Positions 5,811-54,167 of a stretch of DNA of 64,000 bases are shown here, in pieces (position 1 is the stretch's first letter; each line of letters opens with the position of its first letter). Both the position numbers and the translations under genes were made by a program. Source of the DNA: Candidatus Spongiisociaceae bacterium (lineage in GTDB: Bacteria > Actinomycetota > Acidimicrobiia > Spongiisociales > Spongiisociaceae); NCBI GenBank assembly GCA_965262915.1, contig OZ253564.1, positions 1,856,001 to 1,920,000 on the forward strand. Direction: 5' to 3'. The notes under the pieces were generated by a model, which had not been told where the DNA came from, did not search any database, and was given only the letters and a program-made list of their open reading frames with translations.

Positions 5811-5844
5811 GTTTCATTATGCGGAACGTTCTGCTATACAGAAC
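5811..5844. promoter_or_regulatory. Tandem 17-bp palindromic operator pair (putative IclR site)
   Basis: GTTTCA-TTATG-CGGAAC followed by the perfect palindrome GTTCTG-CTATA-CAGAAC, in the divergent region between the carnitine operon and the IclR gene. Confidence 0.7.
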
Positions 5845-5925
5845 GATCATACGATAACCTGCCCCTACCGGGGCGTCAACAGGCACCCGATCCGCCGGAA
5901 GGCGAGGGTGCGGGGATGAGCAACC

Positions 5926-6687
5926 ATGAGGCGATCCTCCAACATCCAATCGGTCGAGCGGGCTTTTGCAGTCCTGCGCGCTCTGCATCCCAACGGCCAG
6001 GCCGTTTCGCTGGCGACCATCGCGAACTACACTGGCTTGCCCAAGAGCACTGCCAGCCGGCTCCTGTCAACCATGGTCGGGATCGGGGTGGTGGAGAAGG
6101 TCTCGGAAGCAGGGTACGCGGTGGGCCGCGAGTTGCGGGCGATCGCACACCCCGGGGTGGGCCCCTCCGATCTGGTCGGGATTTCAGCTACGTACCTGCG
6201 GGACCTGGTCCACGAGATAGGGGAGGATGCAGGGCTGGCCATACCCGACCGCGACCATGTTATGTACATCGACCAGGTGCAGAAGAGCCGGCCGGTACAG
6301 GTCCAGGACTGGACGGGTGAGCGGTTCGAGAACCACACCACGGCGGCCGGTTACGTATTCCTTGCCTCGTGGGACGACGAGGACCTCGATACATACCTGG
6401 CTCGTCCTCTTGCCAAGTCGAGTCCTACCACCGAGACCGACCCGGTACGGTTGCGCGAGTACATCGACATGGCCAGAAGCAACGGTTATGCCTGGACATT
6501 CGAGGCGTGGCTGGAGGGCGTGAACGGCGCCGCCGCACCGATCGTCGACGCCGCAGGTGGGGTTGTCGCGTCCATCAACCTGTACGGTCCGGCCTACCGC
6601 TTCCCGGGCGATACCGACCCGGACGCCATCGGCAAACGCCTGGTCGAGACAGCCGCCCAGATATCCCGCTATCTGGGAGCGACCTAG
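5926..6687 (+). CDS. IclR family transcriptional regulator
   Basis: IQSVERAFAVL and TGLPKSTASRLL HTH, TTAAG, GVNGAAAPI effector domain. Confidence 0.93.
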   Translation: MRRSSNIQSVERAFAVLRALHPNGQAVSLATIANYTGLPKSTASRLLSTMVGIGVVEKVSEAGYAVGRELRAIAHPGVGPSDLVGISATYLRDLVHEIGEDAGLAIPDRDHVMYIDQVQKSRPVQVQDWTGERFENHTTAAGYVFLASWDDEDLDTYLARPLAKSSPTTETDPVRLREYIDMARSNGYAWTFEAWLEGVNGAAAPIVDAAGGVVASINLYGPAYRFPGDTDPDAIGKRLVETAAQISRYLGAT

Positions 6688-7040
6688 CGATCGACTTCGC
6701 AAGATGAGTTGTATATTCGGGATTCGTAGTAGAGGTTGATCGTCCGCGTCGGGCCGACGTGTGGGTGATGGCCTGCCCATCGACCGGAATCCCTTCTCGA
6801 CGGCCGATACATTCGATCTTTCCGGGTTGTTGCGTTTCACCCCGCGGCCTACCCTCAGGAAAATATCTTCCCGAGGCGCATCCACCCGATGCCGTCGCCG
6901 TTGGAGGGTCTCGGCACCATCACCCAGGCCACAGACGACAGGTACCGGCCGCGCTGGACGATCTTGTGAGCATTGAGACCCTGCACCCATATGATCTGCT
7001 CACCTCGCAGGACATTGACGTGCTTCGGCACTATTCGCTC

Positions 7041-7385
7041 TCATACTCCCCGTACTTCCCGCGCGAGTACGAGGAGGCAGTCGTGGTCGGCCAGCATCCG
7101 GCGGAGCGGGGGGAGGTTCTGCAGAACGCGAACCTTCGCCTCGATCGGATCGGTTGCTTCGACGGCCACCAGAACCAAGCCCTTCTCGGAGGCGATCCTG
7201 CGTAGTTCCGGTTGCTCCAGCGAGTCCCGTTCGTAGAACAAGACACCGCGATACCCTCGGTGTGCCGCGGCGCGGATCAGAGCTGTGTCCTGCTCGTCAC
7301 CGCCGTCCCATCTGTCCAGAGTCACGCCGGCCGGAGCTTCCTCAGCCAGGCTCTGGGGCAGGACCGAGTCGTACAAGAACCGCAC
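7041..7385 (-). CDS. PIN-like domain protein (VapC45/DUF5615-like putative toxin)
   Basis: 114 aa; MRFLYDSVLP start, DTALIRAA and VLFYERD match the acidic pattern of DUF5615-like PINs; 3 nt downstream of a DUF433 gene. Confidence 0.65.
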   Translation of the reverse strand: MRFLYDSVLPQSLAEEAPAGVTLDRWDGGDEQDTALIRAAAHRGYRGVLFYERDSLEQPELRRIASEKGLVLVAVEATDPIEAKVRVLQNLPPLRRMLADHDCLLVLAREVRGV

Positions 7386-7388
7386 GAT

Positions 7389-8834
7389 TCAGGGAGCCGA
7401 CAGCAGCTGGTGACCGACTCTCACGGTGTCATCGAAGGAGGCGTTCTCCAGCTCGGGGTAAGCCGACAGGATCAGCTGACGGCCGTTGCGCCGGTCCAGA
7501 CCGGCCAAGCACTTCGCACTAATACGGTGGCCTTTCAGATGAGGCGTACCGTGGAGCACGGCAGGATGTAGCCTCGTATTCTGACTCGCATTCAACAAGG
7601 GAAGGGTCTTTCCGCCGCCGTATGGGAATGGACGAAACACGTCGTCGACGTCTGTGATGTCCAAGCTGAGGGGACGTTGGCCGGTTTCCACGTTCGCCCA
7701 GCCGTCCCCGCGGTCCACGAAAACCGCCCCCTCCGACGTGACTCTGAGCTTGACGGCTTTCTCGTCACCTGCAAACCGCGACAGCGCGGGAACCACATTG
7801 CTCGAAACCCTTCGAGGCGAGACCGACCTGAGATACGACCAGGTGCGGAACGCCACCAGGTCTCGAAAGGCCCATCGGATCGCGCCGGACGAGAGCGGGG
7901 TCAGCAGTTTCTGCTGTCGCAGGTAGTCCAGCGACGACCGAGCGGTTCCTGAGAGGAAGGCTACTTCCTTGGTCTGGTAGACGCCGGCCATGAAGACATC
8001 GGGTTCCCACAGCTTTGTGGTCACCTCGACAGGGAAGTCCTTGAACCGCAGCTTCTGGGGGCCGGGCAGCGCGGCGTCGACCCGGCGGAGCAGTAAGCCG
8101 AGTCGACGCTCGTCCTCCGGGAGGGACTCCGCGATGATCTGCGCCTCGGAAAACCCCGGGTATGTGCTCAACACCCGAGTCCGGGTCTGTGGCCGGCACA
8201 CCAGGACGGTCTGGGATCCGAACCACAACGGGATGTCGGCCTCCGGCGCCAACCTACGCACCACGGCGCCAGCCTGGTCGAGACGGACGGCAAACCGCAA
8301 CGCTCGAAGCGCGTCGAAGCCTCGATCGAGCACCACGACGGGGGCGAGGGGGAACGGGATATCGTCGGTGCGGGCACCGGGCCAGCACTGCCAGTAGAGA
8401 CACTTCTCGTCGGCCGTCACGGGAACTGTGTGGGGATCGATCCGGATCAACCCGGTAAGGTCGTTACCCAGCATATCGGCGACCCGCTTTCTGAGGGACT
8501 GACCGACCGCCGGATTGCCGCACAATGTCGCCGCAGCCAGCGACAAGTCTCGGTCGTCGGTGGAACTGGCAAGGTCGGCGACCGAGCGTGCCACTTCGAA
8601 GAGGTCCAGCCGAGTCGCGATCTCAGCGGCGAAGCGCAGCCGCTCGATGTCTCCCCGCAATAAAGGTAGGACCTCGCCGATAGCTCGGGGGAGGCACTCG
8701 GCATGGGCGACCGTCAGCCCTGTGGCGAGATAGTCCATGGTCGAAGCAAGCGACCGCGAACGAGGTGCCGTGCTGCTCAAGGCGTGAAGCACCGCAGCGA
8801 ACAGACCGGGTGACGGTTGCCTCACGGTCGCCAC
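7389..8834 (-). CDS. Protein with unknown ~270-aa N-terminus + MerR-like HTH + DUF433 (extended VapB45-like antitoxin)
   Basis: GVYQTKEVAFLSG...LDYLRQQKLLTP...WAFRDLV (MerR-like); LHPAVLHGTPHLKGHRI...AYPEL (DUF433-like). Confidence 0.7.
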   Translation of the reverse strand: MATVRQPSPGLFAAVLHALSSTAPRSRSLASTMDYLATGLTVAHAECLPRAIGEVLPLLRGDIERLRFAAEIATRLDLFEVARSVADLASSTDDRDLSLAAATLCGNPAVGQSLRKRVADMLGNDLTGLIRIDPHTVPVTADEKCLYWQCWPGARTDDIPFPLAPVVVLDRGFDALRALRFAVRLDQAGAVVRRLAPEADIPLWFGSQTVLVCRPQTRTRVLSTYPGFSEAQIIAESLPEDERRLGLLLRRVDAALPGPQKLRFKDFPVEVTTKLWEPDVFMAGVYQTKEVAFLSGTARSSLDYLRQQKLLTPLSSGAIRWAFRDLVAFRTWSYLRSVSPRRVSSNVVPALSRFAGDEKAVKLRVTSEGAVFVDRGDGWANVETGQRPLSLDITDVDDVFRPFPYGGGKTLPLLNASQNTRLHPAVLHGTPHLKGHRISAKCLAGLDRRNGRQLILSAYPELENASFDDTVRVGHQLLSAP

Positions 8835-9461
8835 TCGATACCCCCGAGCGCAGCGGTCGGAATATCCTGGTCTATGCGCTCATCGGGCACATCTCCAGAC
8901 GACCACTGCAGTAGCCGACTCGGTATCATGTCGATCCCGCGCGGTTCACGTACCTCGAGCCCGGCGGCGCACATCCTCTCCACCGGGAAGACCATCACGA
9001 TGTAGGGCTGCTCATCGTTGATCCGCAGCCGAGTCCTCGTTCCTACGCCGTCCAGATCAGAAATCCTGAAGACGGGCACCAACCAGGAGTGATCCGGCGG
9101 TACCAGTACTGTGTCATCTCGCAGATCGTTCCATATCGCTTCTACGGGGTTACCCAGGGATTCGAGATAACGCCGGTATAGCTCGCCGGTGCGGAAAACC
9201 CCTCGTCGAGCCGGACGGAGGTGGTAGCGCCAGAACACCTGGACCGAGACACAACGGGAGTAGTCGATAGTTGGTGACACCAGGGCTAAGTCGGGAAGGA
9301 TCTCCCGACGCACTTCCTTGAGTCGCTCCCAAACGAGGTCTGGTTTGGTGGTGACCAGCGAATTCCAGGTGAGCGACCTTGCGTCTGATGTACCTGGGCA
9401 AGCGCCAATCGTCGGCCACGACACGGATCATCTGGCGCGCCTCCGATGCTGCATCAATCAT
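8822..9461 (-). CDS. Hypothetical protein, probably frameshifted near 9350
   Basis: The ATG 9461 frame reads protein-like (MIDAASEARQMIRVVADDWRLPRYIRRKVAHLEF) and then degenerates. The 8822-9424 frame reads protein-like from about TKPDLVWERL onward and overlaps the next gene start. Confidence 0.55.
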
Positions 9462-9695
9462 GCAGTGTGAGCGTAGTAACCACCGCTTGGTCGGAGCGGT
9501 TTCATAGCCGTCGGAAAGGAGCAGCGGCCGCCTTCCGCTGCCAGGCTGGTAGCATGAACATATGTTCGATTATAGTCCCCTGGGCGGGTAACAAAGCAAG
9601 ATGCAACCTATTGCCAAACCCATATAACTACTCTTTCCAGGCCGAATCTCGGGATCAGAGTTGTCACCACCTCATGTGGTTTGTCAAGGACCCAT

Positions 9696-10425
9696 TCATG
9701 GGTCTGGTCCGGCGCGGGGTTGGGTCTGGTAGCCGTGGGGAGTTCGCCGCACTATGAGGTCTTGGGTTTCGAGCCACTTGTGGTGGCGGCGGCAGACCGC
9801 GACGAGGAGGTTAGCAATGTCCGTCTGGTCTCCATCACGGTGCCATTCCTCCATGTGGTGGAGTTCGCATTGGTGTATGGGGGCACCGCATTCGAAGCAT
9901 CCACCGTCGTGGATGGCCACCGCGAGGCGTTGGGCGGCGTTGCCGAGCCGTTGGTTGCGGCCTAGCCACAGGGGCCGGCCGGTCCGGTCGAAGATCATGG
10001 CGGCCAGTTGGTGTCCGGGGTGAGGGTTTGCATGATCGGGCGGGGTACCGGTCCGACACCGATGATCTCGACGGCCCCGTCGGGATCGGTTCCGTCCACT
10101 ACACCCAAGGGGGCGGTGAGGATCAGCTGGGTGGCGGCCTTGGCCTTGATCGATACGGCTTCGGTAATGAACTGGCCGGTGACCGCATCGCGGTTGGTCA
10201 ACAGTTCGTACACCACATCCGCCAAGCGCTGTTTGGGAGTACGGACCTCATCGGGATCCCGGCTGTCGGCACCATCTCGGTGGCGTCGGTGCTTGTACCG
10301 TTGGTCAACGGCTTGGCGGAGGTGTTCGAACTGGGGCCGAGGGACCTTGGCCATCAGCACACCGAGCCCGGTTTCTTTCTCCACCCACAGCTTGGCTTCC
10401 CGGGCCCGCCGCTGACGTCCGAGAG
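9696..10425 (-). pseudogene. DUF222/HNH endonuclease remnant (5'-truncated, frameshifted near 9996)
   Basis: RTPKQRLADVVYEL, GVGPVP, then in another frame IFDRTGRPLWLGR..AQRLA..DGGC..C..CELHH..W..GDQTDIANL..CRRHH. Confidence 0.8.
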
Positions 10426-10667
10426 GATCGACACCTCAAATAGGAGATAGTCGGTCGGACCTGAGTCGGTGGGCACCTCCCGTACGGCCACCTCCCGTAC
10501 GGCCACCCCAGAGCCTCCGCCACCGCGGCATGCTGGTAATCCTGCACTACCCAACCGCATGCCACAAGTTGCTGATCGACTTCGATGCGAGCGCGATTCT
10601 CGGCGTTTACGTAGTCAAGAAGTCGATTGTCCTGACCCGCCACGGATTCGGCCGCTGCGCTCATCAA
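10426..10667 (-). pseudogene. hsdR: Type I restriction endonuclease R subunit, N-terminal remnant
   Basis: ENRARIEVDQQLVACGWVVQD then, frameshifted, GVAVREVPTDSGPTDYLLF; contains a 15-bp tandem duplication (CACCTCCCGTACGGC x2). Confidence 0.7.
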
Positions 10668-10739
10668 CGATGAGGTTACACGGCAGGTGTGACACGACCG
10701 ACAGGCCTGCTCAGCGGCGTGTAGTGGCCAGTTACCGCC

Positions 10740-10937
10740 TTACGGGAGTCGCGCCAGTATTGCTGTACCCATGGCGAACACAGCCCCCAGAGTGGCCAAT
10801 CCTATGCCGGCGGTCCACTGAGTCATTCGCAGCATGTCCCGGCGGAGGTCCGCCACGGCTTTCGCCATCTCCGTTTGCAGTTCGCCTCTTACTGCGTCGT
10901 CCTTCGCGTCCACCAAGGACTCGGTGAGTGTGGTCAT
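10740..10937 (-). CDS. Small coiled-coil + C-terminal TM protein (DUF1640/CCDC90-like)
   Basis: 65 aa; ELQTEMAKAVADLRRDMLRMTQW followed by hydrophobic TAGIGLATLGAVFAMGTAIL. Confidence 0.5.
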   Translation of the reverse strand: MTTLTESLVDAKDDAVRGELQTEMAKAVADLRRDMLRMTQWTAGIGLATLGAVFAMGTAILARLP

Positions 10938-11108
10938 ACCGTGGTCCCTGTTGTGATTGTCGAAAGCCGAAGCGTCTTGCTCTTGCCGGCAGCCCTGTGA
11001 CGCGGCAGCGTATACGTCTCTCCGGGTAGGTCACGTATTACTACGTTTGACATAGTTGTATTATGACACTGCTCCGTTCTGAGCACAAGCGTCAGGAGTC
11101 ATCGCCGG

Positions 11109-12575: not shown

Positions 12576-14138
12576 TCACCACCGGGTGCCTTGGCCGGTC
12601 ACCTCTTCGACGGGGAGCTTGATCGGGTAGTGGTTTCGGATCCACTCGTCCTGGGCGCGCGTCACGTGGGTGGGAAAGTGCGTGCGCATGACTCTGCTGA
12701 CGTGTTCGTTGGCGCGCTCGGCGGCGTTGGTGGCGCCCAGGTCCTTCCAGTCGTCGGGGTTGTTGCGGTCTCCGATCATCGGGTAGACGTACTCCCGCTG
12801 CATCAGATGGAGGGTTTGAGCGCTTCCGAGGAAGTGGCCCGGGCCGAAGATCGTATCCTGGATGACCTGGGCGGAAAGGGTCGAATCGTCGATGTCGACG
12901 CCCCGGATGGTGCGGTTGACGGACCCGAGCATGTCGTTGTCGATCACCAGGGCGTCCAGAGAGAAACCCAGCAGTGACGCCAGCATCCCAGCCGACTCGT
13001 ACACGAGGTTGGCGCCGGCCTGACCGGCGAGGAGCGTTGTTATGCCCTTCTCGTAACCGGCCTGGTTGTCGGGGAGCTTGGAGTCGGCCATGCCCGCCGC
13101 CACGCCGGAAGGCAGGCCCAGCCAGTTGGCCATCTGGGCGGCGGCGGCGTTGAGGACGGCCTCCTCTCCCGAGCCGCCGCTCATGGCACCGGTGCGGAGG
13201 TCCGACACGAACGGCCACAGGCCCATCACGCACGGATGCCCGGGGCTGATCAGGTTGACGCTGGTCAGGCCGGCCAGGCATTCGGCCAAGGCTTGGACCA
13301 GCGATCCTCCCAGGGCGGCGGGGGAGGTGGCGCCTGCTTGGCCGGCGGAGAGCAGGTTGATGGGCATCCCGGTCCGGATCTGGGCCACCATGCACTCGGT
13401 GGATTCGTAGGCGAAGCGAAGGGGCGGCACGACGAAGGTGTTGTTGGCGCACACGAAGGGGCGCCGGCGGAACTCTCCTTCGCCCCCCAACACGTAGTCG
13501 TACATGTCGACCACCTGGTAGACATGCTCGGGCCGGAAGAAGGAGGTTCCCTGTGGCTTGTCGGTGCCCATCATCGTGGCGTAGGCGGTGTTGATGTCGA
13601 CTTCGCGGGATGTCTTGAGATCGCGGGTCACGATGGTCCGCACGAAGAAGTGGATGTGTTCGAGGGTGTCGATCAGGCGGGCGGCGTCGTAGAGGTCGAG
13701 AGTGGTGGTGGGGCGGAACTCGCGGGTGTGGTAGTCCAGCATCAGGACGGCTGCGCCGGCGGTGCCGAAATGGACCTTCGTACCGGACAGGTCCATGCTC
13801 TTATCCTCGTCGAGCCCATGCCAGACCCAGGATTTGGCGGCCACCTCCTCGACGACCCGTTCCACGACTGCTCGCGGATAGTGGAGCCGGTTCCCGTCGT
13901 CCAGATGCCCGCCCGCCGCGGTCACCGCTTCCGCGAACTCGGGGATCGGGTCCCCCATTCCGATCTCGTCGATCAGCCCGAGAGCCGTCTCGTAGACCCG
14001 CTGCATATCGGATTCGGTCAGTGGAGCGTAGGCACCCCCCTTGAAACCGGGACGTACGGCGCGCTCGTCAGCCGTGGGACCCGCGGCCCGCGCAGCCACT
14101 CGGGCGGCGCGACCTCCAGCTCGTCTGCGTCGCGCCAT
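12576..14138 (-). CDS. Trimethylamine methyltransferase (MttB) superfamily, non-pyrrolysine; candidate quaternary-amine:corrinoid methyltransferase
   Basis: AGATSPAALGGSL, DLRTGAMSGGSGE, ADSKLPDNQAGYEK, FGPGHFLG; Arg-rich N-terminus; no in-frame TAG. Confidence 0.9.
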   Translation of the reverse strand: MARRRRAGGRAARVAARAAGPTADERAVRPGFKGGAYAPLTESDMQRVYETALGLIDEIGMGDPIPEFAEAVTAAGGHLDDGNRLHYPRAVVERVVEEVAAKSWVWHGLDEDKSMDLSGTKVHFGTAGAAVLMLDYHTREFRPTTTLDLYDAARLIDTLEHIHFFVRTIVTRDLKTSREVDINTAYATMMGTDKPQGTSFFRPEHVYQVVDMYDYVLGGEGEFRRRPFVCANNTFVVPPLRFAYESTECMVAQIRTGMPINLLSAGQAGATSPAALGGSLVQALAECLAGLTSVNLISPGHPCVMGLWPFVSDLRTGAMSGGSGEEAVLNAAAAQMANWLGLPSGVAAGMADSKLPDNQAGYEKGITTLLAGQAGANLVYESAGMLASLLGFSLDALVIDNDMLGSVNRTIRGVDIDDSTLSAQVIQDTIFGPGHFLGSAQTLHLMQREYVYPMIGDRNNPDDWKDLGATNAAERANEHVSRVMRTHFPTHVTRAQDEWIRNHYPIKLPVEEVTGQGTRW

Positions 14139-14139
14139 G

Positions 14140-16557
14140 TCAGGCCCTCAACCTTTCGCTCCGGGGGTCCCAGACCGCCTCTGCCAGCACCGTGGCCGCT
14201 CGGCGGCGGTTCATCACGTCCACTTCGAAGGTCGAACCGGGAGCTTCGAACTCCGGGTCGACGTAGGCGAACAGGATGCTGCGGCCCACCGAGTGCGCCC
14301 ACGTTCCGCTGGTGGTAATTCCCATGATCCGGTCTCCGTCATAGGTCGGTTCGTTGCCCAGGCAGTCGGCATCGCCCTCGTCGAGCTCGGCGTACACCAG
14401 GACCATAGTGAGCGGCTCGGTCTGGTCCCGCCGGGCCACGGTGGCTTGCTTGCCTTGGAAGGTCCCTCGATAGTCCACGAAGCGGCCCAGGCGGGCTTCG
14501 ACCGGGGTGATCTCGGTGGTGAGCTCGGAACCGAACGCCTTGTAGGCTTTCTCGAGACGCATCACGTTCATGGCTCGGCTTCCGAAGTCGACGATTCCGT
14601 AAGGGGCGCCGGACTTGTGAATTGCTTCGTATGCCTCCACCAAGTGCTCCAGAGGCATGTGCAGCTCCCATCCCAGTTCCCCGACGTAGGAGACCCGCAA
14701 GGCGATGCAGGGGACGCCCGCCACTTCGATCTCCTGGCCCGTGAGCCAGCGGAACGCCTCGTTGGAGAGATCGGCCTCTGTGAGCCCGGCCAGCACCTCC
14801 CTGGAGTGGGGCCCGGTCACAGCCAGGATACCGGTCTGGTCGGTCACATCGACCACCGATACGTCCTCACCTTCCAGGATGTGGAAGGTGAGCCAGTCGA
14901 AGTCGTGCTGCTGGCCGACGATCGCCGAGTTCAGGTAGAAGCGGTCGGGGGCAAGGCGGGTGATAGTCATCTCGGTCTCGATGCCCCCCAGCGTGGTGAG
15001 CATGTGCACCAGCCGCATCCCCCCGTCGCGCGCGGGAAGGCGGTTGGCCGACAGGCGGTCGAGCAGGGTGGCGGCGTCGGTTCCGGTCACCTCGAACTTG
15101 GAGAAGGCGGTGAGGTCTGCGATCCCCACCCGGTCCCGGATAGCCCTCACTTCGCTCCCTACCTCGTCGTGGGCCGAGGAGCGGCGGAACGAATACATCT
15201 CCGGATCGGGAGAGAAGTACATGGCCCGTTCCCAACCCCACACCTCCTGCCAGCGAGCGCCCTTCGCGTCGAGGATGTCGTAGAGGGGGGTCTGCTTCAT
15301 CGGGCGGCCCGCATCCCGGTACTCGTTGGGCATCCGCACCTGGTACATCTCGTGGAATTCGTCGATCGAGCGCTCGTGGGTGTAGCGGCCGGGCGCGTAG
15401 GGGCCGAAGCGGCGGGGGTCCATCGCGGCCACGTTGATCTCGGTCTGGCCGTGGACCATCCACTGCGCCAGGTACTTGCCGGCCCCGGGTCCTTGGGTTA
15501 TGCCGATCGAGGCGCCCGCGCAGTACCAGTAGTTACGTAGCCCCGGAGCCGGGCCCATCAGGTAGCCGGCGTCGGGAGTATGGGTGATCGGCCCCGATAC
15601 CACCTGCTTGATGCCGGCACCGGCGAAGCAGGGGAGCCTCTGCGAGGCCAGGTCCAGCCAGGGCAGCAGGCGGTCCAGTTCCACCGGGGTGAGGTGGAAG
15701 GTGAGACCCCAGTCGATACCCTCCACACCGTACTCCTTGGCCTCGGCCCGTTCGTAGGGCCCGATAAGGAGACCGTCGTGCTCCTGGCGGTAGTAGCAGG
15801 AAGCCCGGGGATCGCGCACGACGGGATGCTCGGTCTCCAGCGCCGCCACCTCCTCTATACGCTCGGTGACCAGGTACTGGTGGATCACCGACTCTATGGG
15901 GACCTCGAGGCCCACCATGGCCCCCAACTGGGGAGCGTAGGAGCCGGCCGCGTTGACCACGTGCTCTGCAACGATGCGGCCTTTCTGGGTGATGACCTCC
16001 CAACGCCCGTCGGGAAGCAGGTTCATGTCGGTCACCCGGTTCTTGCGGCTGATTTCGGCGCCCAGGTTGCGGGCCCCCACCGCCATGGTGTTGGTGGCGG
16101 CGGAGGGATCGGTCCAACCGTCGCCCGGGGTCCATATGCCCAGCTTGATATCCGGCTCGACGTCGAGGAGGGGCGCCACCTCGGTGATCTCCGCCGGGCT
16201 CAGGAGGTGGCACTCCACCCCGATCAACTCCAGCATGCCCTTGACGTAGTAGAACCAGTCGACCTCGTTGTCGTATCTGGCCAGGCGCACCGCTCCGCAC
16301 CCGTGCCATCCCGAGTGCATTCCGGTCTCCTGTTCGATCACCTTGTAGAGGTCGGCGGTGTCCCGGTGGACCTTGGCCGTGTTGAGGTCGCCGATGAAGT
16401 GGGGTATCAGGCCGGCGGCATGCCAGGTGGAGCCTGAGGTCAGTTCGTCCTTCTCGATGAGGATGGTGTCGGTCCAGCCTTCGTGGGCGAGGAAGTAGAG
16501 GAGACCGACGCCCATGGCGCCCCCGCCTACGATCGCGACCTGGGCCTCGTCGCGCAT
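14140..16557 (-). CDS. GcvT-family FAD-dependent oxidoreductase (dimethylglycine dehydrogenase-like)
   Basis: AIVGGGAMG, ELTSGSTWHAAG, GPITHTPD, GWER, RVSYVGELGWELH, RLEKAY. Start placed at ATG 16557 behind GGAGG. Confidence 0.9.
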   Translation of the reverse strand: MRDEAQVAIVGGGAMGVGLLYFLAHEGWTDTILIEKDELTSGSTWHAAGLIPHFIGDLNTAKVHRDTADLYKVIEQETGMHSGWHGCGAVRLARYDNEVDWFYYVKGMLELIGVECHLLSPAEITEVAPLLDVEPDIKLGIWTPGDGWTDPSAATNTMAVGARNLGAEISRKNRVTDMNLLPDGRWEVITQKGRIVAEHVVNAAGSYAPQLGAMVGLEVPIESVIHQYLVTERIEEVAALETEHPVVRDPRASCYYRQEHDGLLIGPYERAEAKEYGVEGIDWGLTFHLTPVELDRLLPWLDLASQRLPCFAGAGIKQVVSGPITHTPDAGYLMGPAPGLRNYWYCAGASIGITQGPGAGKYLAQWMVHGQTEINVAAMDPRRFGPYAPGRYTHERSIDEFHEMYQVRMPNEYRDAGRPMKQTPLYDILDAKGARWQEVWGWERAMYFSPDPEMYSFRRSSAHDEVGSEVRAIRDRVGIADLTAFSKFEVTGTDAATLLDRLSANRLPARDGGMRLVHMLTTLGGIETEMTITRLAPDRFYLNSAIVGQQHDFDWLTFHILEGEDVSVVDVTDQTGILAVTGPHSREVLAGLTEADLSNEAFRWLTGQEIEVAGVPCIALRVSYVGELGWELHMPLEHLVEAYEAIHKSGAPYGIVDFGSRAMNVMRLEKAYKAFGSELTTEITPVEARLGRFVDYRGTFQGKQATVARRDQTEPLTMVLVYAELDEGDADCLGNEPTYDGDRIMGITTSGTWAHSVGRSILFAYVDPEFEAPGSTFEVDVMNRRRAATVLAEAVWDPRSERLRA

Positions 16558-16698
16558 GCTCGTTCCTCCGACGACTCTGAGTACGGGATGCCTCGGCACC
16601 CCGCCTGTTCCGGGTGTACGGTACTCCCCCGAGGGACGAGGATAGTGCCTAGCGGGGGTGTTATTACCCACATCTGCGGGATGTTCTCGGCGGTGTTC

Positions 16699-17610: not shown

Positions 17611-17631
17611 CGCCGGCCACGCTAGCGGCAA

Positions 17632-18200: not shown

Positions 18201-18204
18201 AGGG

Positions 18205-38177: not shown

Positions 38178-38190
38178 CTAGGAGGATCCC

Positions 38191-43631: not shown

Positions 43632-43634
43632 AGG

Positions 43635-45804: not shown

Positions 45805-47291
45805 TCACGGTGGCCGTTGGCAACTGTCGTCGAGGAAAGCACCGGTCTGGTTGGTGGTGCGCCTGAGAGCCTGTGTGACAGCCTCGCGTACCTGGGCGAT
45901 CGGTGCGTCGCCGGGCTGGAATTCGGGGGGGATGAAGTTGACTGTGACGATTCTCGATGTATCGAGCATGTCTGCCAGGTCGACAAGTTCGTCGAGACGG
46001 TCACGCGGGATGTCGGTGTTGATGTGATCGGTGATGATGTCGGCCAGCGCCACATAGTTGCGAACCATTCGTATGGACGGAACCTGGTCGATGAGCGCTT
46101 CGATGACGCATCGTTGGCGGGTCATGCGGTGCCAGTCCGTACTCTTGGTTCGGGAACGCACGTATCCGAGCGCCGCCAAGCCGTCGAAGTGGTGGTCACC
46201 CGGTTCCACGACGATGTCGATGTGCGGGCCATCGGGCACGATGGGCTTGATCCGGTCGTTGATCGACTCGGTAACGTGCACGTCGATGCCGCCGGACAGG
46301 TCGATGACCTCGACGAAGCCCACCATGCCGATGAGCACGTAGTACTGGATGTCGAGGCCGGTCAGTTGGGCGAGTGCCGATTTGATGGTATGGCCGGCCG
46401 TGTCCTCGACGTTCGGGAAGGCCTCGGGGAACCTCAGCCCCAGGCCGTAGATCTCGTTGGCGATGCCCGGATACCCGTCGGGCCATTGCTCGGCTGCGGG
46501 GGTCCCTTCGGGGAAGGTGACGTGATGCCAGTTGCGGGGTACGTTGAACGCCGCCGCGTCGCCGGTGGCCATATCGATCGAGAGCACGATGATCGTGTCG
46601 GTTCTCACACCGTGGCGGTCGAACCCGGTGTCGCTGCCGAGTAGGGCGATGGTGAGGCGATCGGCCCCGTCCCAGGTCGGAGGTGGTGCTGTCGTGACGG
46701 AAGCGGTGGCGGAGGAGTTGTGGTCGGGGGAGCCGCGACCGGGGCAGCCACGGTCGTCTGCGCAGGAGCGGTCTAGGTCGTCGGCGCCGCCGTGGTGGGA
46801 ACCGGCGTCCCGGTGGCGGTTCGGGTTCCGGTGGCGTCGAAGACCGTGGTCAGCATCTCGAGCTGGGTCATGGCGTATCCGACGACCAGAACGTGGGGCG
46901 CGGCGATGATCACGGCCAGGGAGGCGAGCGTGATCACGGAGAGGAATCGGTGGGTCACGCAAGGGCACTGCGGTGGGGCGCGGCGAGCCGCGGTCCTGTA
47001 CGCGTCGACCGCGATTCCGATACGAAGAGCCAGGACGCAGACGGTCCCGGCGATGACGATCCAGAGCCACGACGGGGTCACGCTCCAGGCCAGCAGCGTG
47101 GCCGGACGGCGCGTGGCGACATAGATCACGCCGGCGGCAGCCGCCCCGAGGGTTCCGAATGTCAGGACTGCGGCGCGGCCGTTGCGGTGTCCGAAGTGCC
47201 CCAAGCCCGGCCACGCCGCGGAGAGAGCCACCGCGGCCAACGGCTCGGGACCGCGCCGTGTGGACTCCCCCAATACCTGATCCACAGCCAC
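45805..47291 (-). pseudogene. LCP (LytR-CpsA-Psr) family protein, interrupted by TAG at 46773 and a frameshift
   Basis: N-terminal TM part 46773-47291; LLGSD, RTDTIIV, VPRN, ALGYVRSR, RMTRQRCVI in another frame. Confidence 0.8.
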
Positions 47292-47852: not shown

Positions 47853-49388
47853 TCACGACCGGCGGCTGTCGGCAGGCCCGTCGAGCAGGTGGAAGAGCCA
47901 CTCGGCCGCGCCGGTCGCCGGTCCGGGAATGGCCCGTGTCCTGGTTCCCAGCGCGGCCAGCGCTCGGGCGGTTTCGGCCGCCGAGGCCGCCAGCGCGGCC
48001 CGGTTGCGCTCACCTCCGGGTTTGAGAGCGTTCACGATCTCGAAGGTGACCACATTCACCCTGGTCGGGGTGTGCTCGATCGAGGTCAACGACCATCGGC
48101 CGGTGGACGGGTTCCGGGTGACGGTGAACTGCAGGATCACCCCGTCCTGGGTTCCCGGCTTGCCATCCTCCCATCGCGGGGACTGGTTGGAGAGGAAGTT
48201 ACCCAGCCCGTAGACGAGGTACTCGTCCCCGATCCGATCCACGGGCTGCACCACATGGGCGTGATGGCCGATGATGAGATCGATATCGGGGGAGGACAGG
48301 AGGCGCGGTCCCAGGTCGGCCTGGTACCGGTCGGGCGCACGGCTGTACTCCGTTCCCCAATGCAGGGAAAGGATGATGAAGTCGGCGCCCGCGGCCCTCG
48401 CCCGACCGGCTTCCTCCAGGATGGCTTGCTCGTCGACGATGTTGACCATGTGGGCCTCCTCGGCGCGTAGCTCACCGATGTTGAGCCCGTAGGTGTAGGA
48501 GAGGTGAGCCACCGTCGCGCCTTTCACCTCTACCAAGTTGAGCCTCTCCTGCTCGTCGGGGGTGCGGGCCATCCCCGTGTGAGCCACGCCGGCGCGATCG
48601 AGCGCCTCGATCGTGCCGATCACCCCTCTCAGGCCGGTGTCGGCCGAGTGGTTGGAGGCCAGCGAGCAAGTGTCGTACCCGGCGTGGGCGATGGCATCGG
48701 CCAGCTGGTTGGGCACGTTGAACCGCGGATAGGAGGAGATCCGCTCGTTGTCGGGGGACATCGGCGTCTCCAGATGGCACACAGCCAGATCGGCCGCCCG
48801 CAGGATCTCCCTCACCTGGGAGAACATCGGTGTGAAGTCCCAGCCGTCGGCGGTGCGGGCCGTGCGGGCCACCGCCTTGTGGATGATCAGGTCACCGGTC
48901 GCGGCGATGGTGATCGAGCGGGATCGTCGGACGACCGTTGCCGTGGGCGCCGTCGACGTGGTGGCGGTCATCGCCGGGGCGGAGGTGGTGGAGGGCGCCG
49001 GGTGGGTGTCCGCCGGCAGAGAGGATGCCGCCCGTGCGCTCGAGGTGGGCGCGGTCGGATCGGGAACGGGCGCCGTGGTGGTCGTGGCAGAGGACGGTGT
49101 CCCGGCGGTCGGCTCGGGCGCGGTCGGGTCGGGAACGGGCGCCGTGGTGGTCGTGACCGGCGCCGTAGGGGGTCCGGCCGCCGTATCGACCGCCGGCATG
49201 GTCGGGTCGGGCGCAGGACCGGTACGGAATCCCGCCGCGATCTCCGCGGGGTCGGCCTCGCCGGTATGACCTGAACCCGCCAGCAACCATACGACCGGCG
49301 CGGCCACTGCGAGCAATCCGACAAGGACACCCAGGAGGGTGGTCCAAGACGGTGGAGGGCGACGGCCCGTCTTCCTCTGAACAGGCAT
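47853..49388 (-). CDS. CapA-family protein with N-terminal TM anchor and Pro/Thr linker
   Basis: ATGDLIIH, CHLETP, SLASNHSAD, LHWGTEY, IGHHAHVVQP, YGLGNFLS; start codon lies inside a MITE. Confidence 0.85.
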   Translation of the reverse strand: MPVQRKTGRRPPPSWTTLLGVLVGLLAVAAPVVWLLAGSGHTGEADPAEIAAGFRTGPAPDPTMPAVDTAAGPPTAPVTTTTAPVPDPTAPEPTAGTPSSATTTTAPVPDPTAPTSSARAASSLPADTHPAPSTTSAPAMTATTSTAPTATVVRRSRSITIAATGDLIIHKAVARTARTADGWDFTPMFSQVREILRAADLAVCHLETPMSPDNERISSYPRFNVPNQLADAIAHAGYDTCSLASNHSADTGLRGVIGTIEALDRAGVAHTGMARTPDEQERLNLVEVKGATVAHLSYTYGLNIGELRAEEAHMVNIVDEQAILEEAGRARAAGADFIILSLHWGTEYSRAPDRYQADLGPRLLSSPDIDLIIGHHAHVVQPVDRIGDEYLVYGLGNFLSNQSPRWEDGKPGTQDGVILQFTVTRNPSTGRWSLTSIEHTPTRVNVVTFEIVNALKPGGERNRAALAASAAETARALAALGTRTRAIPGPATGAAEWLFHLLDGPADSRRS

Positions 49389-49645: not shown

Positions 49646-50641
49646 TCAGGTTTGCTCCCGGGCGAGGCCGCGGCGGCGGACGATCTCGGCGGAGATGGCG
49701 GGCACCACTTCGTGGAGGTCGGCGATCACGGCCCAGTCGGCCTTGGTGACCATCGGGGCGTCCCGGTCGGTGTTGATGGCCAGGACGTTCTTGGCGTTCA
49801 TCATCCCGACCCAGTGTTGGATGGCGCCCGAGATACCGCAGGCTATATAGAGGTCAGGCGCCACGACGGTGCCGGTCTGGCCCACCTGGAACTTGTGGTT
49901 CTTCCATCCGTTGTTGGTCACCACCCTCGAGCAGCCCACCGCGCCTCCCAGCAGGTCGGCCAGTTCTTCGATGATGGAGAAGCCCTCGACGTTTCCTACG
50001 CCCCGCCCGCCGCTCACCACCACCGGGGCGGTGGCCAGGGTGATGCCCTCCGAGATCGTCACCCGGTCCTGCACCATGGTGACGGAGGCTGACTCGTCGA
50101 GGAGGGGCGTGAACACCGACACGCGACCCGCGCCCGGTACGCGGGCATGGGCGGCCTCCGTGCTGTGCGGGGCGAGCGTGACCAGCTTGGTGGGCGCGGA
50201 GAGCCTGGCCCGCTCGTGGAGGCTCCCGCCCCAGCGGACCCGGGTCATGAGCCAGTCCTCGCCGTCGGGTTCTATCTCCAGGCAGTTGGCAACCATCGCG
50301 AGGTCCAGGCGGGCCCCGGCGTGGGCCATGACCTCGTTACCACGGTCGGTTCCGGTTGCCATCACCGCGGCCGCACCCACGGAACGAGCCACCTGCACGA
50401 GGCTGTCGGCCCATGCGTCGGGCCCGTAGTCCCTGAGCAGTTCGTGCCGGACCACATGGACTTCCTCGGCGCCGAAGACGTCCATTCCGGCGGCCGGCCC
50501 GTCCGCGCCCTCGCCGATCACCGCCGTATGTAGAGAGGCGCCCATCGCCGCCGCCAGCCGCCTGGCCCCGGTGAGCCCTCCCAGGGTGGTCTCATCGATC
50601 CGGCCTCGATCATGCTCGACGAGGTACAGGAACACGCTCAT
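49646..50641 (-). CDS. etfA: Electron transfer flavoprotein alpha subunit
   Basis: VVSGGRGVG, QVGQTG, YIACGISGAIQH, AINTDRDAP; ATG 50641 overlaps the etfB stop. Confidence 0.93.
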   Translation of the reverse strand: MSVFLYLVEHDRGRIDETTLGGLTGARRLAAAMGASLHTAVIGEGADGPAAGMDVFGAEEVHVVRHELLRDYGPDAWADSLVQVARSVGAAAVMATGTDRGNEVMAHAGARLDLAMVANCLEIEPDGEDWLMTRVRWGGSLHERARLSAPTKLVTLAPHSTEAAHARVPGAGRVSVFTPLLDESASVTMVQDRVTISEGITLATAPVVVSGGRGVGNVEGFSIIEELADLLGGAVGCSRVVTNNGWKNHKFQVGQTGTVVAPDLYIACGISGAIQHWVGMMNAKNVLAINTDRDAPMVTKADWAVIADLHEVVPAISAEIVRRRGLAREQT

Positions 50642-51405
50642 ATCAGGCCCAGACCTTCCAGGATGTCGACGATGGCGGGTGCGGCCTCCGCTCCCTCCCC
50701 GAGAACGTCGACCCTGGTTCCGGCGGCCGGGGGTGTGACCAGGATCACCTTGGACTGCCCGCTCGATCCCGGTACGGGCTCGATGCGCGATATCGGGGCC
50801 CGCCGGGCGGCCATCCTCCCTCGCAGGGTCGGGTAGCGGGGCAGGTTGATGCCCTCCTTCACCGCCACCACCGCCGGGAGAGGCAGCCGGTAGACCTCCG
50901 AACCGGAAGGTGTCTCGCGCCGGGCGGTGATCCCTCCCTCCTCGGTGTCTATACCCTTGATCCCACTCACGATGGGCCGTCCCAGGGTCCGGGCCACCCG
51001 GATGCCCACCTGGTAGCCGCACGAGTCGGCTGATTCGCTACCGAACAGGATCAGGTCGAACGGATCCTCCTGGCCGGTCTCCATCTCGCCTATGGCGGCG
51101 GTGAGTGCCTTGGCGGTGGATACCGGATCCCAGTCGGGGATGTCGGTGGGCAGCAGCACCGCCGACGTCGCACCGACCGCCACGGCCGACCGAAGCTGTT
51201 CCTCGGCTTCCGGGGGACCCAGCGTCATCACGGTCACGGAGCCGCCCTCCCGTTCGACGATCCGGACCGCCTCCTCCACGGCGCACTCCTCGTGGGGGCT
51301 CACGGTGAACCCCAGCAGGGACGAGTCGATGTCCTGGCCGTCCGGGGTCAGGACGATCTTCGCTCCCGGCGCCGGGACCCGCTTGACGCACACCAGGATC
51401 CGCAC
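50638..51405 (-). CDS. etfB: Electron transfer flavoprotein beta subunit
   Basis: MRILVCVKRVP, AVEEAVR, DLILFGSESAD, INLPRYPTL. Confidence 0.93.
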   Translation of the reverse strand: MRILVCVKRVPAPGAKIVLTPDGQDIDSSLLGFTVSPHEECAVEEAVRIVEREGGSVTVMTLGPPEAEEQLRSAVAVGATSAVLLPTDIPDWDPVSTAKALTAAIGEMETGQEDPFDLILFGSESADSCGYQVGIRVARTLGRPIVSGIKGIDTEEGGITARRETPSGSEVYRLPLPAVVAVKEGINLPRYPTLRGRMAARRAPISRIEPVPGSSGQSKVILVTPPAAGTRVDVLGEGAEAAPAIVDILEGLGLI

Positions 51406-51425
51406 GACCTACCTCCGGACCGCCA

Positions 51426-53936
51426 TCAGCGCTTCATCCGGCTGTCGTCCGGATCGAACAGCGGTCGGGACCCGACCCGCGCCACCTTGACCGGGAACAA
51501 CTCGTTCTGGTACATGATCCGGAGTTCCTTCCCCTCCTCCGCCATGTCCGTGGGCAGGTACCCGATCAGTATGTAAGTGTACAGGGACGGTGCGGCGCCG
51601 GCCGAGGTGACCCGCGAAACGCGGCCCTTGGAGTCCACGATCCGCTCGCCGTCCGGAGTGAGGATCGGCTCGTTGCCACCCATCGGGAAGCGGGGGATAC
51701 CCGAGTCGGATACGTGGCTCTCCATCGTCAGGGTGCAACACACCGCCGCGGGGCCCGCGGCCCGGGCAGCGAGATAGGCTTCCTTGCCGATGAAGTCGGC
51801 GCTCTTGACCCTGGGGCGGGCCAGACCGGCCTCGACCGGGTTGTACTCCGATTCCAGTTCGGCCCCCATGAGACGGTAACCCTTCTCAAGGCGGGCCGTG
51901 GTTCCGTAGACGCCGGCGCCGACCGGTACCACCCCGAACTCCTGGCCGGCCTCCCACAGGGCCTGCCACAGCATGGGGGCGTGTTCCATGTTCGTGTACA
52001 CCTCCCATCCGAGGTCGCCCACATAGGAGATGCGGAACATGGTGACCGGAATCGAATCGATCGTGGCGTGTTTGAAGGTGCCGTAACGGAACCCCTCGTG
52101 GGAGATGTCGTCGGACGTGAGCTTCTGAACCAGGCTGCGGGCCTGAGGTCCCCACACTCCGATGGTGGACAGGGACGAGGTGATATCGGTGAAGGTGACG
52201 GATCCGTCCTCGGGGAGCCATTTGCGGAACCAGTAGGAGTCGCGCCCGCCGTCGAAGCCTCCGGTCACCACCCTGAAATGGTCTTCTCCCATCCGCAGCA
52301 CGGTCAGGTCGGATCGGAAGCCGCCTCTCTCGGTGAGGAGTGGCGTGTATATCCCTCTTCCCGGCGCATAGTTCACCTGGTTGACCGTCATGTGCTGCAT
52401 GTAGTCGAGCGCGCCCGGTCCCTTGATGTCGAAGATGGCGAACGCGGTCAGGTCGACCATCCCCACCCTGTCCCGCAGCGCCAGGTGCTCGGCGTTCTGG
52501 ATGGGTGACCACCAGCGGGAGTCCCACTCGTGGGGGCGTTGGGGGATCCGGTCGGCGTACTCCTCCAGCAGGGGGGTGTTGGACTCATACCAGTGGGGCC
52601 GTTCCCATCCTCCGGCCTCGAAATAGACGGCCCCGAGCGCCGACGTGGTGGTGTGGAGGGTACTGACCCGGCTGTTGCGTCGACTGTCCCACTGCTCCCG
52701 TGGGTGGACGATCCCGTAGGTCTTGTTGAAGTGCTCCGCGCACCGGGAGAGGATGTGCTGCTCGGACTTCATGTAGGGATAGAAGCGGGCGATGTCCGAG
52801 GCGTGGGGATCGATCTCGGGGTAGCCCTGGGTCATCCACTCGGCCAGCGCCCGCCCCGTGCCGGGGCCTTCCTTGATCCAGATCGCCGCGCAGGACCACA
52901 GGTTCTTCACCTCCGGGGTCTCTCCGACCAGGGGCATCGCGTCCGGCGTCAGCGAGAGCAGTCCGTTGATGCCGTACTTGATCTCGGCATCACCCAGCAA
53001 CGGCATCAGCTCCATGGCCTGCTCGAGTTGGGGATCGAAGTCGTCCATGGTCAGCGGCAACTCCGTGGGCGACAGGCGGGCTTCCTCGATCGAGGGGATG
53101 GTGTCGGGGTGGTGGAAGATCGGCCGGTGGGCATAGGACCCTACCTCCATGGAGCCGCCCGTCTGGCGCTCGTAGCAGAAGGTGTCCGCGTCGCGGACGA
53201 TCGGATAGCCGATCTCGCTGTTGGTGGCCGCCAGCACTTCGAGCGGACCCACGTCGATCATCTGGTGTACGGCCGGCGTGAGAGGGATCGAGGCACCGGC
53301 CATCGTGGCCAGGCGAGGTGACCAGACCCCACAGGCGATGACCACGTAGTCGCAGGTGATCCTCCCTTTGTTGGTGACCACCGCCCGGATCCGTGACCGC
53401 TTCGTCTCGATGTCCAGTACCTCCGTTACCGGGTGGACCGACAGGGCGCCCTTGCCCTGCGCGTACTCGCGCATCAGGGTCCCGGCGCGCAGGGAGTCGA
53501 CCACCGACACGCCGGGCGTATACCATCCACCCAGGATCACCGACTCGTCCAGGAAGGGCACCAACTCCTTCGCCTCGGCCGGGCTTACCAGCCAGCTCTC
53601 GATGCCCCAGCACCTGGCCGAGGTCATGCGTCGGTTGAGTTCGTGCAACCGTTCCTCGGTGCGGGCCAACTCCAGGCCTCCCGAGGTGACGCTGACTTCC
53701 ATCTCCTCGTACTGATGCTGGCTGTCGAGGGTGAGGTGGGTCATCTCCTTGTTGTGGTCCACCGGATAGATGAAGTTGGAGGCGTGCCCGGTGGAGCCGC
53801 CGGGGTTGGGCAGGGGGCCTTTGTCGAGCTGGACGATGTCTCGCCAGCCGAGCGCGGCGAGGTGTTTGACCACCGAGTTACCGACGATTCCGGCGCCGAT
53901 GACTACCACCTGGGCGCTGGTTGGGAGATCGCTCAT
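51426..53936 (-). CDS. GcvT-family FAD-dependent oxidoreductase (dimethylglycine oxidase/sarcosine dehydrogenase-like)
   Basis: VIGAGIVG, NPGGSTGHAS, LLSLTPD, GGWERP, RISYVGDLGWE, RLEKGYR; co-transcribed with etfBA. Confidence 0.9.
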   Translation of the reverse strand: MSDLPTSAQVVVIGAGIVGNSVVKHLAALGWRDIVQLDKGPLPNPGGSTGHASNFIYPVDHNKEMTHLTLDSQHQYEEMEVSVTSGGLELARTEERLHELNRRMTSARCWGIESWLVSPAEAKELVPFLDESVILGGWYTPGVSVVDSLRAGTLMREYAQGKGALSVHPVTEVLDIETKRSRIRAVVTNKGRITCDYVVIACGVWSPRLATMAGASIPLTPAVHQMIDVGPLEVLAATNSEIGYPIVRDADTFCYERQTGGSMEVGSYAHRPIFHHPDTIPSIEEARLSPTELPLTMDDFDPQLEQAMELMPLLGDAEIKYGINGLLSLTPDAMPLVGETPEVKNLWSCAAIWIKEGPGTGRALAEWMTQGYPEIDPHASDIARFYPYMKSEQHILSRCAEHFNKTYGIVHPREQWDSRRNSRVSTLHTTTSALGAVYFEAGGWERPHWYESNTPLLEEYADRIPQRPHEWDSRWWSPIQNAEHLALRDRVGMVDLTAFAIFDIKGPGALDYMQHMTVNQVNYAPGRGIYTPLLTERGGFRSDLTVLRMGEDHFRVVTGGFDGGRDSYWFRKWLPEDGSVTFTDITSSLSTIGVWGPQARSLVQKLTSDDISHEGFRYGTFKHATIDSIPVTMFRISYVGDLGWEVYTNMEHAPMLWQALWEAGQEFGVVPVGAGVYGTTARLEKGYRLMGAELESEYNPVEAGLARPRVKSADFIGKEAYLAARAAGPAAVCCTLTMESHVSDSGIPRFPMGGNEPILTPDGERIVDSKGRVSRVTSAGAAPSLYTYILIGYLPTDMAEEGKELRIMYQNELFPVKVARVGSRPLFDPDDSRMKR

Positions 53937-53959
53937 CCCTGGCTCCTGTTCCTACCCCT

Positions 53960-53994
53960 GTTCCATATCGTGGAACCCTCTTACGATACGGAAC
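53960..53994. promoter_or_regulatory. Tandem 17-bp operator pair upstream of the dehydrogenase-etf operon
   Basis: Perfect palindrome GTTCCA-TATCG-TGGAAC, then c CTCTTA-CGATA-CGGAAC. Confidence 0.7.
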
Positions 53995-54132
53995 AGCTTA
54001 ACCGTCGTTCGGGTAGGATGTCACCGCCAGACAGGGCGGGACAGCCCCCTGAACGGCTCATCGGCCACCGGTTGGCGGGTAATCCGACCGGGCGGAGATC
54101 CGCTGGCCGGAGAGCGCCGGTTGGGGTATGCT

Positions 54133-54167
54133 GTTCCACGATGTAGAACTGTTCCGCATCCTGAGAC
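54133..54167. promoter_or_regulatory. Tandem 17-bp operator pair upstream of the corrinoid operon
   Basis: GTTCCA-CGATG-TAGAAC t GTTCCG-CATCC-TGAGAC. Confidence 0.7.

Follow-up and report, generated by a model that had tools for sequence, protein, structure and literature searches.

Does one regulator of the IclR family govern the use of carnitine, betaine and one-carbon units in a Candidatus Spongiisociaceae bacterium, or is the task divided between sister proteins? The question is raised by 64,000 nucleotides of contig OZ253564.1 (forward-strand positions 1,856,001–1,920,000; this whole stretch is called the window, and coordinates below count from its first letter), in which five tandem pairs of 17-bp palindromes lie upstream of genes for these pathways and an IclR gene is located at 5926–6687 (+). 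An earlier note, made from the DNA letters and a list of open reading frames (ORFs), had assigned all five pairs to that one protein. We find that the pairs belong to two spacing classes, and that in other genomes these classes follow the clade of the IclR gene and its gene context. On balance, and with modest confidence, we favor two sister IclR-type regulators that serve two operator classes, one with no nucleotide between the boxes (gap 0) for carnitine and one with a single intervening nucleotide (gap 1) for betaine and one-carbon metabolism. The reading with a single master regulator is probably too simple.

Five tandem operator pairs and one IclR gene

All ten boxes were located where the earlier note had placed them, with 0–1 nt between the members of each pair, and all five pairs are indeed intergenic, in a window that is ~85% coding according to a rough gene list. 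The class-A operator (gap 0; 5811–5827 and 5828–5844) lies in the spacer between the divergent BKACE and IclR genes. The other four operators have gap 1 and are of class-B type: 28200–28216 and 28218–28234, 62 bp upstream of the ATPase start of a first OpuA-type importer (28138, −); 33717–33733 and 33735–33751, between the broken ATPase gene of a second importer (−) and fhs (+, 55 bp downstream); 53960–53976 and 53978–53994, 24 bp upstream of the start of a DMGDH-like gene (53936, −); and 54133–54149 and 54151–54167, 46 bp upstream of a corrinoid-protein gene and with a TANNNT hexamer directly before. No strand is assigned to any of the five operators.

The boxes have a GTTCC-N7-GGAAC-like form. 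The consensus that had been proposed for them, GTTYCR-N5-YRGAAC, does point to non-random tandem palindromes, but it fits only 3 of the 10 boxes exactly, and the second box of the 53960 pair (at 53978), which is weak, departs from it by three mismatches. In its strict form the pattern has 4 matches on the two strands of the window, compared with 0.09 expected, and 0 of 100 shuffled sequences reached 4. When up to two mismatches are allowed, 9 of the 10 boxes fit, but 77 matches are returned compared with 44.5 expected, and the pattern becomes unspecific. Because the strict pattern fits few boxes and the relaxed pattern is unspecific, the signal resides in how the boxes are paired and in their inner bases.

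With a position weight matrix (PWM) derived from the ten boxes, these reach 15.5–24.5 bits, and the next best site in the window (13.6 bits) is coding. Such a matrix is circular as a test of the boxes from which it was made, and we therefore rebuilt PWMs from sites of other genomes only. With gap 1, a PWM from clade-B IclR loci (defined below) returns exactly the four gap-1 pairs of the window, at 33.8–36.4 bits (34.6 for the pair at 28200, 33.8 at 33717, 35.0 at 53960, and 36.4 at 54133). With gap 0, a PWM from distant clade-A loci returns the 5811 pair alone, at 45.0 bits. Windows simulated with a first-order Markov model contained any pair in 1 of 100 cases, with a top score of 17.8. We could not find a sixth pair in the 64-kb window, nor any intergenic box above 11 bits in it outside the five pairs. 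The five pairs are thus genuine and significant tandem palindromes.

The IclR-family protein encoded at 5926 (253 amino acids) is transcribed divergently from the carnitine operon and is assigned to its family by Pfam and to clade A by phylogeny. It combines an N-terminal winged helix-turn-helix (HTH) domain (HTH_IclR, PF09339, residues 9–59, E value 2.4e-16, 59.6 bits compared with a cut-off of 22) with an effector domain (IclR_C, PF01614, residues 82–248, E value 2.7e-29, 102.4 bits, cut-off 24). Its relatives in the PDB are all of IclR type, the nearest being generic IclR structures and TtgV, and a palindrome in the regulator's own promoter, which is a trait of the IclR family, is present by sequence. 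The top NCBIfam matches are BhcR, PcaR/PcaU/PobR, IclR, KdgR and AllR, and all equivalogs stay below their curated cut-offs (BhcR, 124.9 compared with 350; pcaR_pcaU, 121.1 compared with 284.75). As these scores are far under the cut-offs, the 5926 IclR is not an orthologue of any named regulator. The domain scan with Pfam covered 66 ORFs of the window (51 + 15), all of at least 100 amino acids, and an AraC-type domain was not found among them.

The 5811 pair is located 81 bp before the IclR gene and next to a promoter-like site of the carnitine operon (5851–5879, −; −35 element at 5879–5874, −10 element at 5856–5851). This was the one site returned by a promoter scan of the region, in which 0.1 were expected, and it ends 7 nt before the pair. 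When we aligned 11 orthologous BKACE–IclR spacers, conservation was limited to the pair and to two blocks at the positions of the promoter elements, one resembling TANNNT and the other TTGAC. Because the pair comes right after the conserved −10 element, it would cover the start of the carnitine transcript, a classic repressor position. Judged from the sequence, the 5926 IclR very probably binds this pair.

Operator spacing follows the clade of the neighboring IclR gene

We compared the window with 80 loci from other genomes (L001–L080), which are the best 80 of 563 confirmed matches (599 stretches matched) in a search of genome contigs with a profile made from an alignment of the 5926 IclR and 24 orthologues. 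The loci were selected via two peptide patterns, that is, by protein motifs and not by DNA; since one of the patterns is the recognition helix, the half-site is common to all 80 loci, and the upstream DNA is not biased by this choice. Nearly all loci come from metagenome-assembled genomes of Acidimicrobiia, the nearest ones being labeled as sponge-associated lineages, and the 5926 IclR has a clade of orthologues among metagenome proteins at 51–94% identity. Window proteins were placed on the loci with tblastn.

A tree of 81 IclR sequences (the 80 loci and the window; IQ-TREE quick search, LG+G4, with support values from the Shimodaira-Hasegawa-like approximate likelihood ratio test, SH-aLRT, only) separates a clade A/C of 28 sequences, which includes the window, from a clade B of 53 sequences (SH-aLRT 99 each). 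In 21 loci of clade A/C and in the window, the IclR gene is found beside, and divergent to, the BKACE/carnitine dehydrogenase genes. In a subclade of clade A/C with 4 loci, the IclR gene lies beside an MttB1–DMGDH1 pair. In clade B, 43 of the 53 genes are within 6 kb of fhs or of a corrinoid operon, and the other 10 are on short contigs or in other contexts.

A PWM scan places boxes 30–100 bp before the IclR start in most of the 80 loci. We counted a gene as preceded by a box if a site of at least 10 bits was present no more than 260 bp upstream. By this measure, boxes precede 25 of 28 clade-A/C IclR genes (20 pairs, all gap 0), 35 of 53 clade-B IclR genes (12 pairs; 11 gap 1, 1 gap 2), 26 of 30 corrinoid-protein genes (19 pairs; 18 gap 1, 1 gap 2), and 21 of 28 fhs genes (11 pairs, all gap 1). 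Control genes for acyl-CoA dehydrogenase (ACAD; 0/21), ligase (0/9), MttB2 (0/33), DUF1638 (0/19), VirF (0/23), and pterin-methyltransferase (0/20) have no upstream box, and RACo (1/20) and MTHFR (1/17) have one each. Scanned in relatives with a PWM, as the earlier note had suggested, the boxes thus track IclR genes and not control genes. That the sites are of IclR type is therefore well supported at the level of sequence; of the proposal that the 5926 protein is the regulator of all five pairs, this part stands, and it is sole ownership that fits poorly with the gap classes.

The spacing survey considered gaps 0 and 1 in clades A and B and set the 5 clade-C loci aside. Of the 21 pairs in the 22 clade-A loci, 19 have gap 0, and all 19 are found 33–63 bp before the IclR match. 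The other two have gap 1, are located ~7 kb from the IclR gene, and precede an MttB-like gene (L013 and L014). All 32 pairs in the 53 clade-B loci have gap 1. Among these loci, gap 0 is hence confined to clade-A IclR promoters, including those of L001–L003, and gap 1 occurs before fhs, corrinoid operons and clade-B IclR genes. The window has the same arrangement, with one gap-0 pair at its own IclR gene and four gap-1 pairs at the OpuA, fhs, DMGDH–etf and corrinoid-operon promoters; the distances of the gap-1 pairs from the corrinoid-protein gene (46 bp) and from fhs (55 bp) are inside the range of the clade-B loci.

The two classes also differ in box composition, class A preferring T at position 5 and an A/T-rich center. 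Log-likelihood ratios of class A over class B are +1.4 and +10.9 bits for the two 5811 boxes and −1.4 to −8.1 bits for the eight gap-1 boxes (−6.1 and −1.4 at 28200; −3.8 and −5.6 at 53960). Leave-one-out classing assigned 29 of 36 class-A and 48 of 56 class-B boxes correctly. The class-A model included the close relatives of the window (L001–L005 and L008), and since their pairs are near-identical to the 5811 pair, the class-A verdict on that pair is not independent, whereas the gap-1 verdict is.

On the protein side, the recognition helix is identical in clades A and B, the DNA-binding domain is nearly identical, and only one alignment column cleanly separates the clades (A141 compared with S). 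With a single clean column, the protein offers no explanation of the spacing rule.

Some individual loci deserve description. The MttB-like gene of L013 (977–2559) and L014 (1320–2882) is 39% identical to the window MttB2 and ends the carnitine cluster; its gap-1 pair lies ~20 bp before the start, and a gap-0 pair is present at the IclR gene of the same cluster. In L030, L045, L058 and L080, a subclade-C IclR gene adjoins the orthologous MttB1–DMGDH1 pair, and single boxes are found upstream of IclR. In L068 (10001–13307), labeled Paracoccaceae, a clade-B IclR gene is found beside genes for a corrinoid protein (78% identical) and an MttB protein (63%), an arrangement also seen in Acidimicrobiia; this record reflects either horizontal transfer or a binning or labeling issue.

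Genes behind the operators and their surroundings

The carnitine-to-betaine operon (36–5730, −) was annotated with Pfam and NCBIfam, and its gene order is kept beside the clade-A IclR gene in other loci. It starts with BKACE (4801–5730, −; Pfam E value 1.5e-95) and continues with a carnitine dehydrogenase–thioesterase fusion (3253–4785, −), for which Pfam places a 4HBT_2 domain on the same protein and the L-carnitine dehydrogenase model NF005471 scores 427.9 compared with a cut-off of 414. An acyl-CoA dehydrogenase gene (2096–3256, −; Pfam) and an acyl-CoA ligase-like gene (ORF 36–2459, −, true start uncertain; Pfam) follow. L-Carnitine dehydrogenase, the fused thioesterase and BKACE in one operon make up the carnitine dehydrogenase/BKACE pathway as predicted from sequence.

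The genes flanking the five pairs are largely those named in the earlier note, as judged by Pfam and NCBIfam; the exception is the second ABC importer, whose ATPase gene is broken. Copy 1 of the OpuA-type betaine importer (23186–28138, −; Pfam) encodes an ATPase with a CBS domain, a permease and a binding protein. In copy 2 (28327–33553, −; Pfam), the permease and binding-protein genes are open, and the ATPase gene (about 32917–33553, −) is split over three frames in tblastn (−2, −1 and −3), where residues 217–389 of the copy-1 protein (~170 residues) lack a counterpart. It may be a decaying duplicate or an assembly error.

The importer clusters are duplicates with coding DNA 66–77% identical, so that the 28200 and 33717 pairs are not independent, as had been recognized before. 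The two operators are identical at 34 of 36 positions and their flanks no longer align; because the operator has stayed near-identical while the duplicated flanks diverged, it appears to have been kept by selection. The only other spacer stretch that still aligns is an identical 10-mer at 28150–28159 and 33671–33680, in both OpuA leaders and ~40 bp from the operator, which could be a leader or ribosome-binding region.

Downstream of the 33717 pair, fhs (33806–35575, +) encodes formate-tetrahydrofolate ligase (Pfam FTHFS, E value 1.8e-247). The 53960 pair precedes an operon (49646–53936, −; Pfam) of a DMGDH-like dehydrogenase gene (51426–53936) followed by etfB and etfA. The 54133 pair precedes the corrinoid methyltransferase operon (54213–61375, +; Pfam), which encodes a B12-binding protein, a DUF1638 protein, a small ‘Virulence_fact’ protein, a pterin-binding methyltransferase, a RACo activase, an MttB-family methyltransferase and an MTHFR-like protein. 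The operon contains all four domains (MttB-family methyltransferase, corrinoid protein, pterin methyltransferase and RACo activase) of a predicted non-pyrrolysine MttB-type betaine:corrinoid methyltransferase system; the top NCBIfam match of the corrinoid protein is the glycine-betaine-specific MtgC (206.6 bits, under the cut-off of 370).

A generic scan detected no sigma-70 promoter at the four gap-1 sites. Counted by eye, a TANNNT hexamer touches or overlaps the first corrinoid box in 18 of 19 distinct sequences, among them that of the window, and at fhs a TANNNT-like hexamer can be read by eye a few bases past the pair in the window and in several clade-B loci.

The window also contains a second MttB-family operon with DMGDH-like and OCD-like genes (12576–17631, −), which has no box upstream. 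An IS110-family transposase gene (18205–19428, +) is located between an OCD-like gene and the PEP carboxylase gene; as these two genes are adjacent in L002 (16834–17748 and 17780–20506), the IS110 copy appears to be an insertion specific to this lineage. The ~4.4 kb (6700–11100) that separate the IclR gene from an MFS transporter gene contain ORFs without Pfam families except for weak HNH and DUF433 matches. The corresponding distance in L002 is ~100 bp, L001 has an insert there too, and the 6700–11100 insert is possibly a mobile or defence island. Parts resembling the formate dehydrogenase alpha subunit (36520–40963, +) occur in an odd order, with the molybdopterin and C-terminal part at 36520–38079, a NuoF-like part at 38206–39987, and the Fe-S N-terminal part with Mo-Fe4S4 at 39980–40963; since the first two parts follow one another in the same way in L064 and L070, the gene may have been split in a conserved manner and not damaged. 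The PGA_cap (CapA-like) profile is divided into halves between two neighboring ORFs (44161–46055, −, and 47853–49388, −), a pattern suggestive of a frameshift, and an intact paralogue is found 2 kb away.

One regulator or two

We favor a division of labor between two sister repressors, which would share the recognition helix and the half-site GTTCC/GGAAC and differ in the spacing of their dimer sites. The 5926 IclR would occupy the gap-0 pair at 5811–5844, probably as a dimer of dimers. By binding right after the −10 element it would repress the carnitine operon, and probably iclR itself, as a local repressor, until an inducer from the carnitine pathway releases it. The four gap-1 pairs would represent, in local form, a conserved regulon for betaine and one-carbon metabolism, read by a clade-B paralogue whose gene adjoins fhs or the corrinoid operon in other Acidimicrobiia and is expected outside the 64-kb window here. 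Because promoter elements adjoin the operators, we infer that the regulators of both classes repress by occlusion. The matching of proteins to sites, their binding as tetramers, their effectors and the presence of a clade-B gene in this genome likewise belong to the proposal. More tentatively, paralogues with the same helix and half-site may be insulated from one another by one base pair of spacing, in a two-tier switch with carnitine-to-betaine conversion on one side and betaine uptake, demethylation and one-carbon oxidation on the other; we regard this as possible and somewhat doubtful.

The strict spacing rule, the box composition and the positional orthology of the fhs and corrinoid operators speak for a second, clade-B regulator, and so do gene distances: the clade-B IclR gene is up to 4–8 kb from its fhs or corrinoid targets in L019, L024, L025 and L029. 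In L061, L066 and L048, whose corrinoid operons are most like that of the window, IclR comes directly after MTHFR; the window ends 2.6 kb past MTHFR. Paralogues with this helix can also occur together, as clade-A and clade-C loci do in two assemblies (L012 with L058, and L014 with L080).

Several observations weigh against the division. Neither a clade-B IclR gene nor a remnant of one was found in the window, which holds all four gap-1 targets, when we searched for a second IclR with Pfam on the 66 ORFs and with tblastn using ten clade-B and clade-C IclR proteins at E values up to 10. Because the clades do not differ in the recognition helix, the 5926 protein could recognize single boxes of the gap-1 pairs. 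The 5811 pair reaches 34.1 bits with the clade-B PWM, and in geometric terms a shift of the spacing by 1 bp is slight. The best 80 of 563 matches include no clade-B locus from any of the 22 clade-A assemblies, a weak null since 483 confirmed matches fall outside the 80. Sampling went via the IclR gene and covers only those corrinoid operons that have an IclR gene nearby.

The 5926 IclR might instead bind all five pairs alone and co-regulate carnitine, betaine and one-carbon catabolism, the clade-B paralogue having been lost in the sponge-associated lineage and its operators taken over. We consider this unlikely, although it has much in its favor: the protein is the only IclR and the only recognizable HTH regulator among the 66 ORFs scanned, it has the recognition helix common to both clades, no clade-A assembly contributed a clade-B locus to the 80, and the matrices cross over between classes, the clade-B PWM giving the 34.1 bits at 5811 and the clade-A PWM 24.9 bits at 28200 and 22.9 bits at 33717. 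The gap-1 operators are moreover under selection in this lineage, being 34/36 identical across an old duplication. Yet a protein that reads both spacings sits poorly with 0 gap-1 pairs among 19 at clade-A IclR promoters and 0 gap-0 pairs among 32 in clade-B loci, and the IclR promoter of the window retains gap 0, as do those of L001–L003. All eight gap-1 boxes class as B, the 53960 and 54133 pairs fail the per-box threshold of the clade-A PWM, and the fhs and corrinoid operators of the window are positionally orthologous to those beside clade-B IclR genes.

If both paralogues are present, they could also share some of the sites with graded affinity, so that betaine status feeds back on carnitine catabolism. 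Half-sites and recognition helix are common to both clades, L013 and L014 have a gap-0 and a gap-1 pair in one carnitine cluster, and there is a precedent in CdhR and GbdR of Pseudomonas aeruginosa, which have overlapping sites at the carnitine promoter (PMC5806209). Nevertheless, the clean spacing classes across many lineages suggest insulation and not sharing, and dual occupancy is a conjecture, which makes such intertwined control improbable in our view. Least probable by far is that a regulator from outside the IclR family binds the boxes and that their nearness to IclR genes is incidental. The assignment to IclR does rest on sequence, and the HTH scan of the window covered ORFs of at least 100 amino acids. 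However, boxes precede the regulator's own gene for 60 of the 81 IclR homologues, in both clades and many contexts, are absent upstream of internal operon genes, and occur in loci that were chosen by protein motifs and not by DNA; a tandem 17-bp palindrome, too, suits the dimers and tetramers of IclR proteins.

The division between two sister repressors can be set beside known systems. BlcR (AttJ) of Agrobacterium tumefaciens is an IclR-type repressor reported to bind as a dimer of dimers to two adjacent inverted repeats with a short, critical spacer. It differs from the present case in pathway and sequence. Here the length of the spacer (0 or 1 nt) appears to set two paralogues apart, which is not known to have been described for BlcR. 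TtgV of Pseudomonas putida (PDB IDs 2xrn and 2xro) belongs to the same two-domain fold family and matches the 5926 IclR with an E value of 1.4e-18. TtgV is described as an operator-bound tetramer that blocks RNA polymerase until a ligand releases it, and tetramer binding with promoter occlusion is standard for the IclR family (bioRxiv 10.1101/2023.07.27.550818). This scheme fits the window, where the tandem boxes adjoin the −10 element. TtgV differs in its effectors and in its target, an efflux pump, compared with predicted quaternary-amine catabolism here, and the window operators, unlike that of TtgV, are each a clear pair of 17-bp palindromes that abut or stand 1 nt apart.

In our literature searches, supplements excluded, we could not find a report of an IclR regulator tied to carnitine-dehydrogenase, MttB or dimethylglycine operons; where a paper mentions both IclR and carnitine dehydrogenase, its IclR passages deal with the glyoxylate-shunt repressor of E. 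coli. Regulators of carnitine and betaine pathways are known from the TetR, LysR and MarR families. Those described in P. aeruginosa, CdhR for carnitine and GbdR for glycine betaine, are related AraC-family proteins with overlapping sites (PMC5806209). They resemble the arrangement proposed here in having one carnitine regulator and a related betaine regulator, divergent regulator and operon genes, and similar sites (PMC5806209); they differ in being AraC-family activators, compared with likely IclR repressors here. An IclR gene adjoining caiAB-like genes is mentioned, but not studied further, in a plasmid paper (PMC6514802).

If the proposed division is true, the two-paralogue spacing switch of uncultured sponge-associated Acidimicrobiia would be the counterpart, within the IclR family, of the AraC-type pair CdhR/GbdR. 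Both carnitine and glycine betaine are plentiful nutrients of animal origin. Sponge symbionts have been noted to use carnitine (PMC5649159), and IclR proteins could act here as sensors of carnitine or betaine metabolites. The kind of system is already known, and the general understanding of how IclR proteins work is unchanged by our findings. What they provide is a testable regulon for an uncultured lineage, and a clean natural case for asking how tetrameric paralogues that read DNA with one and the same helix escape cross-talk.

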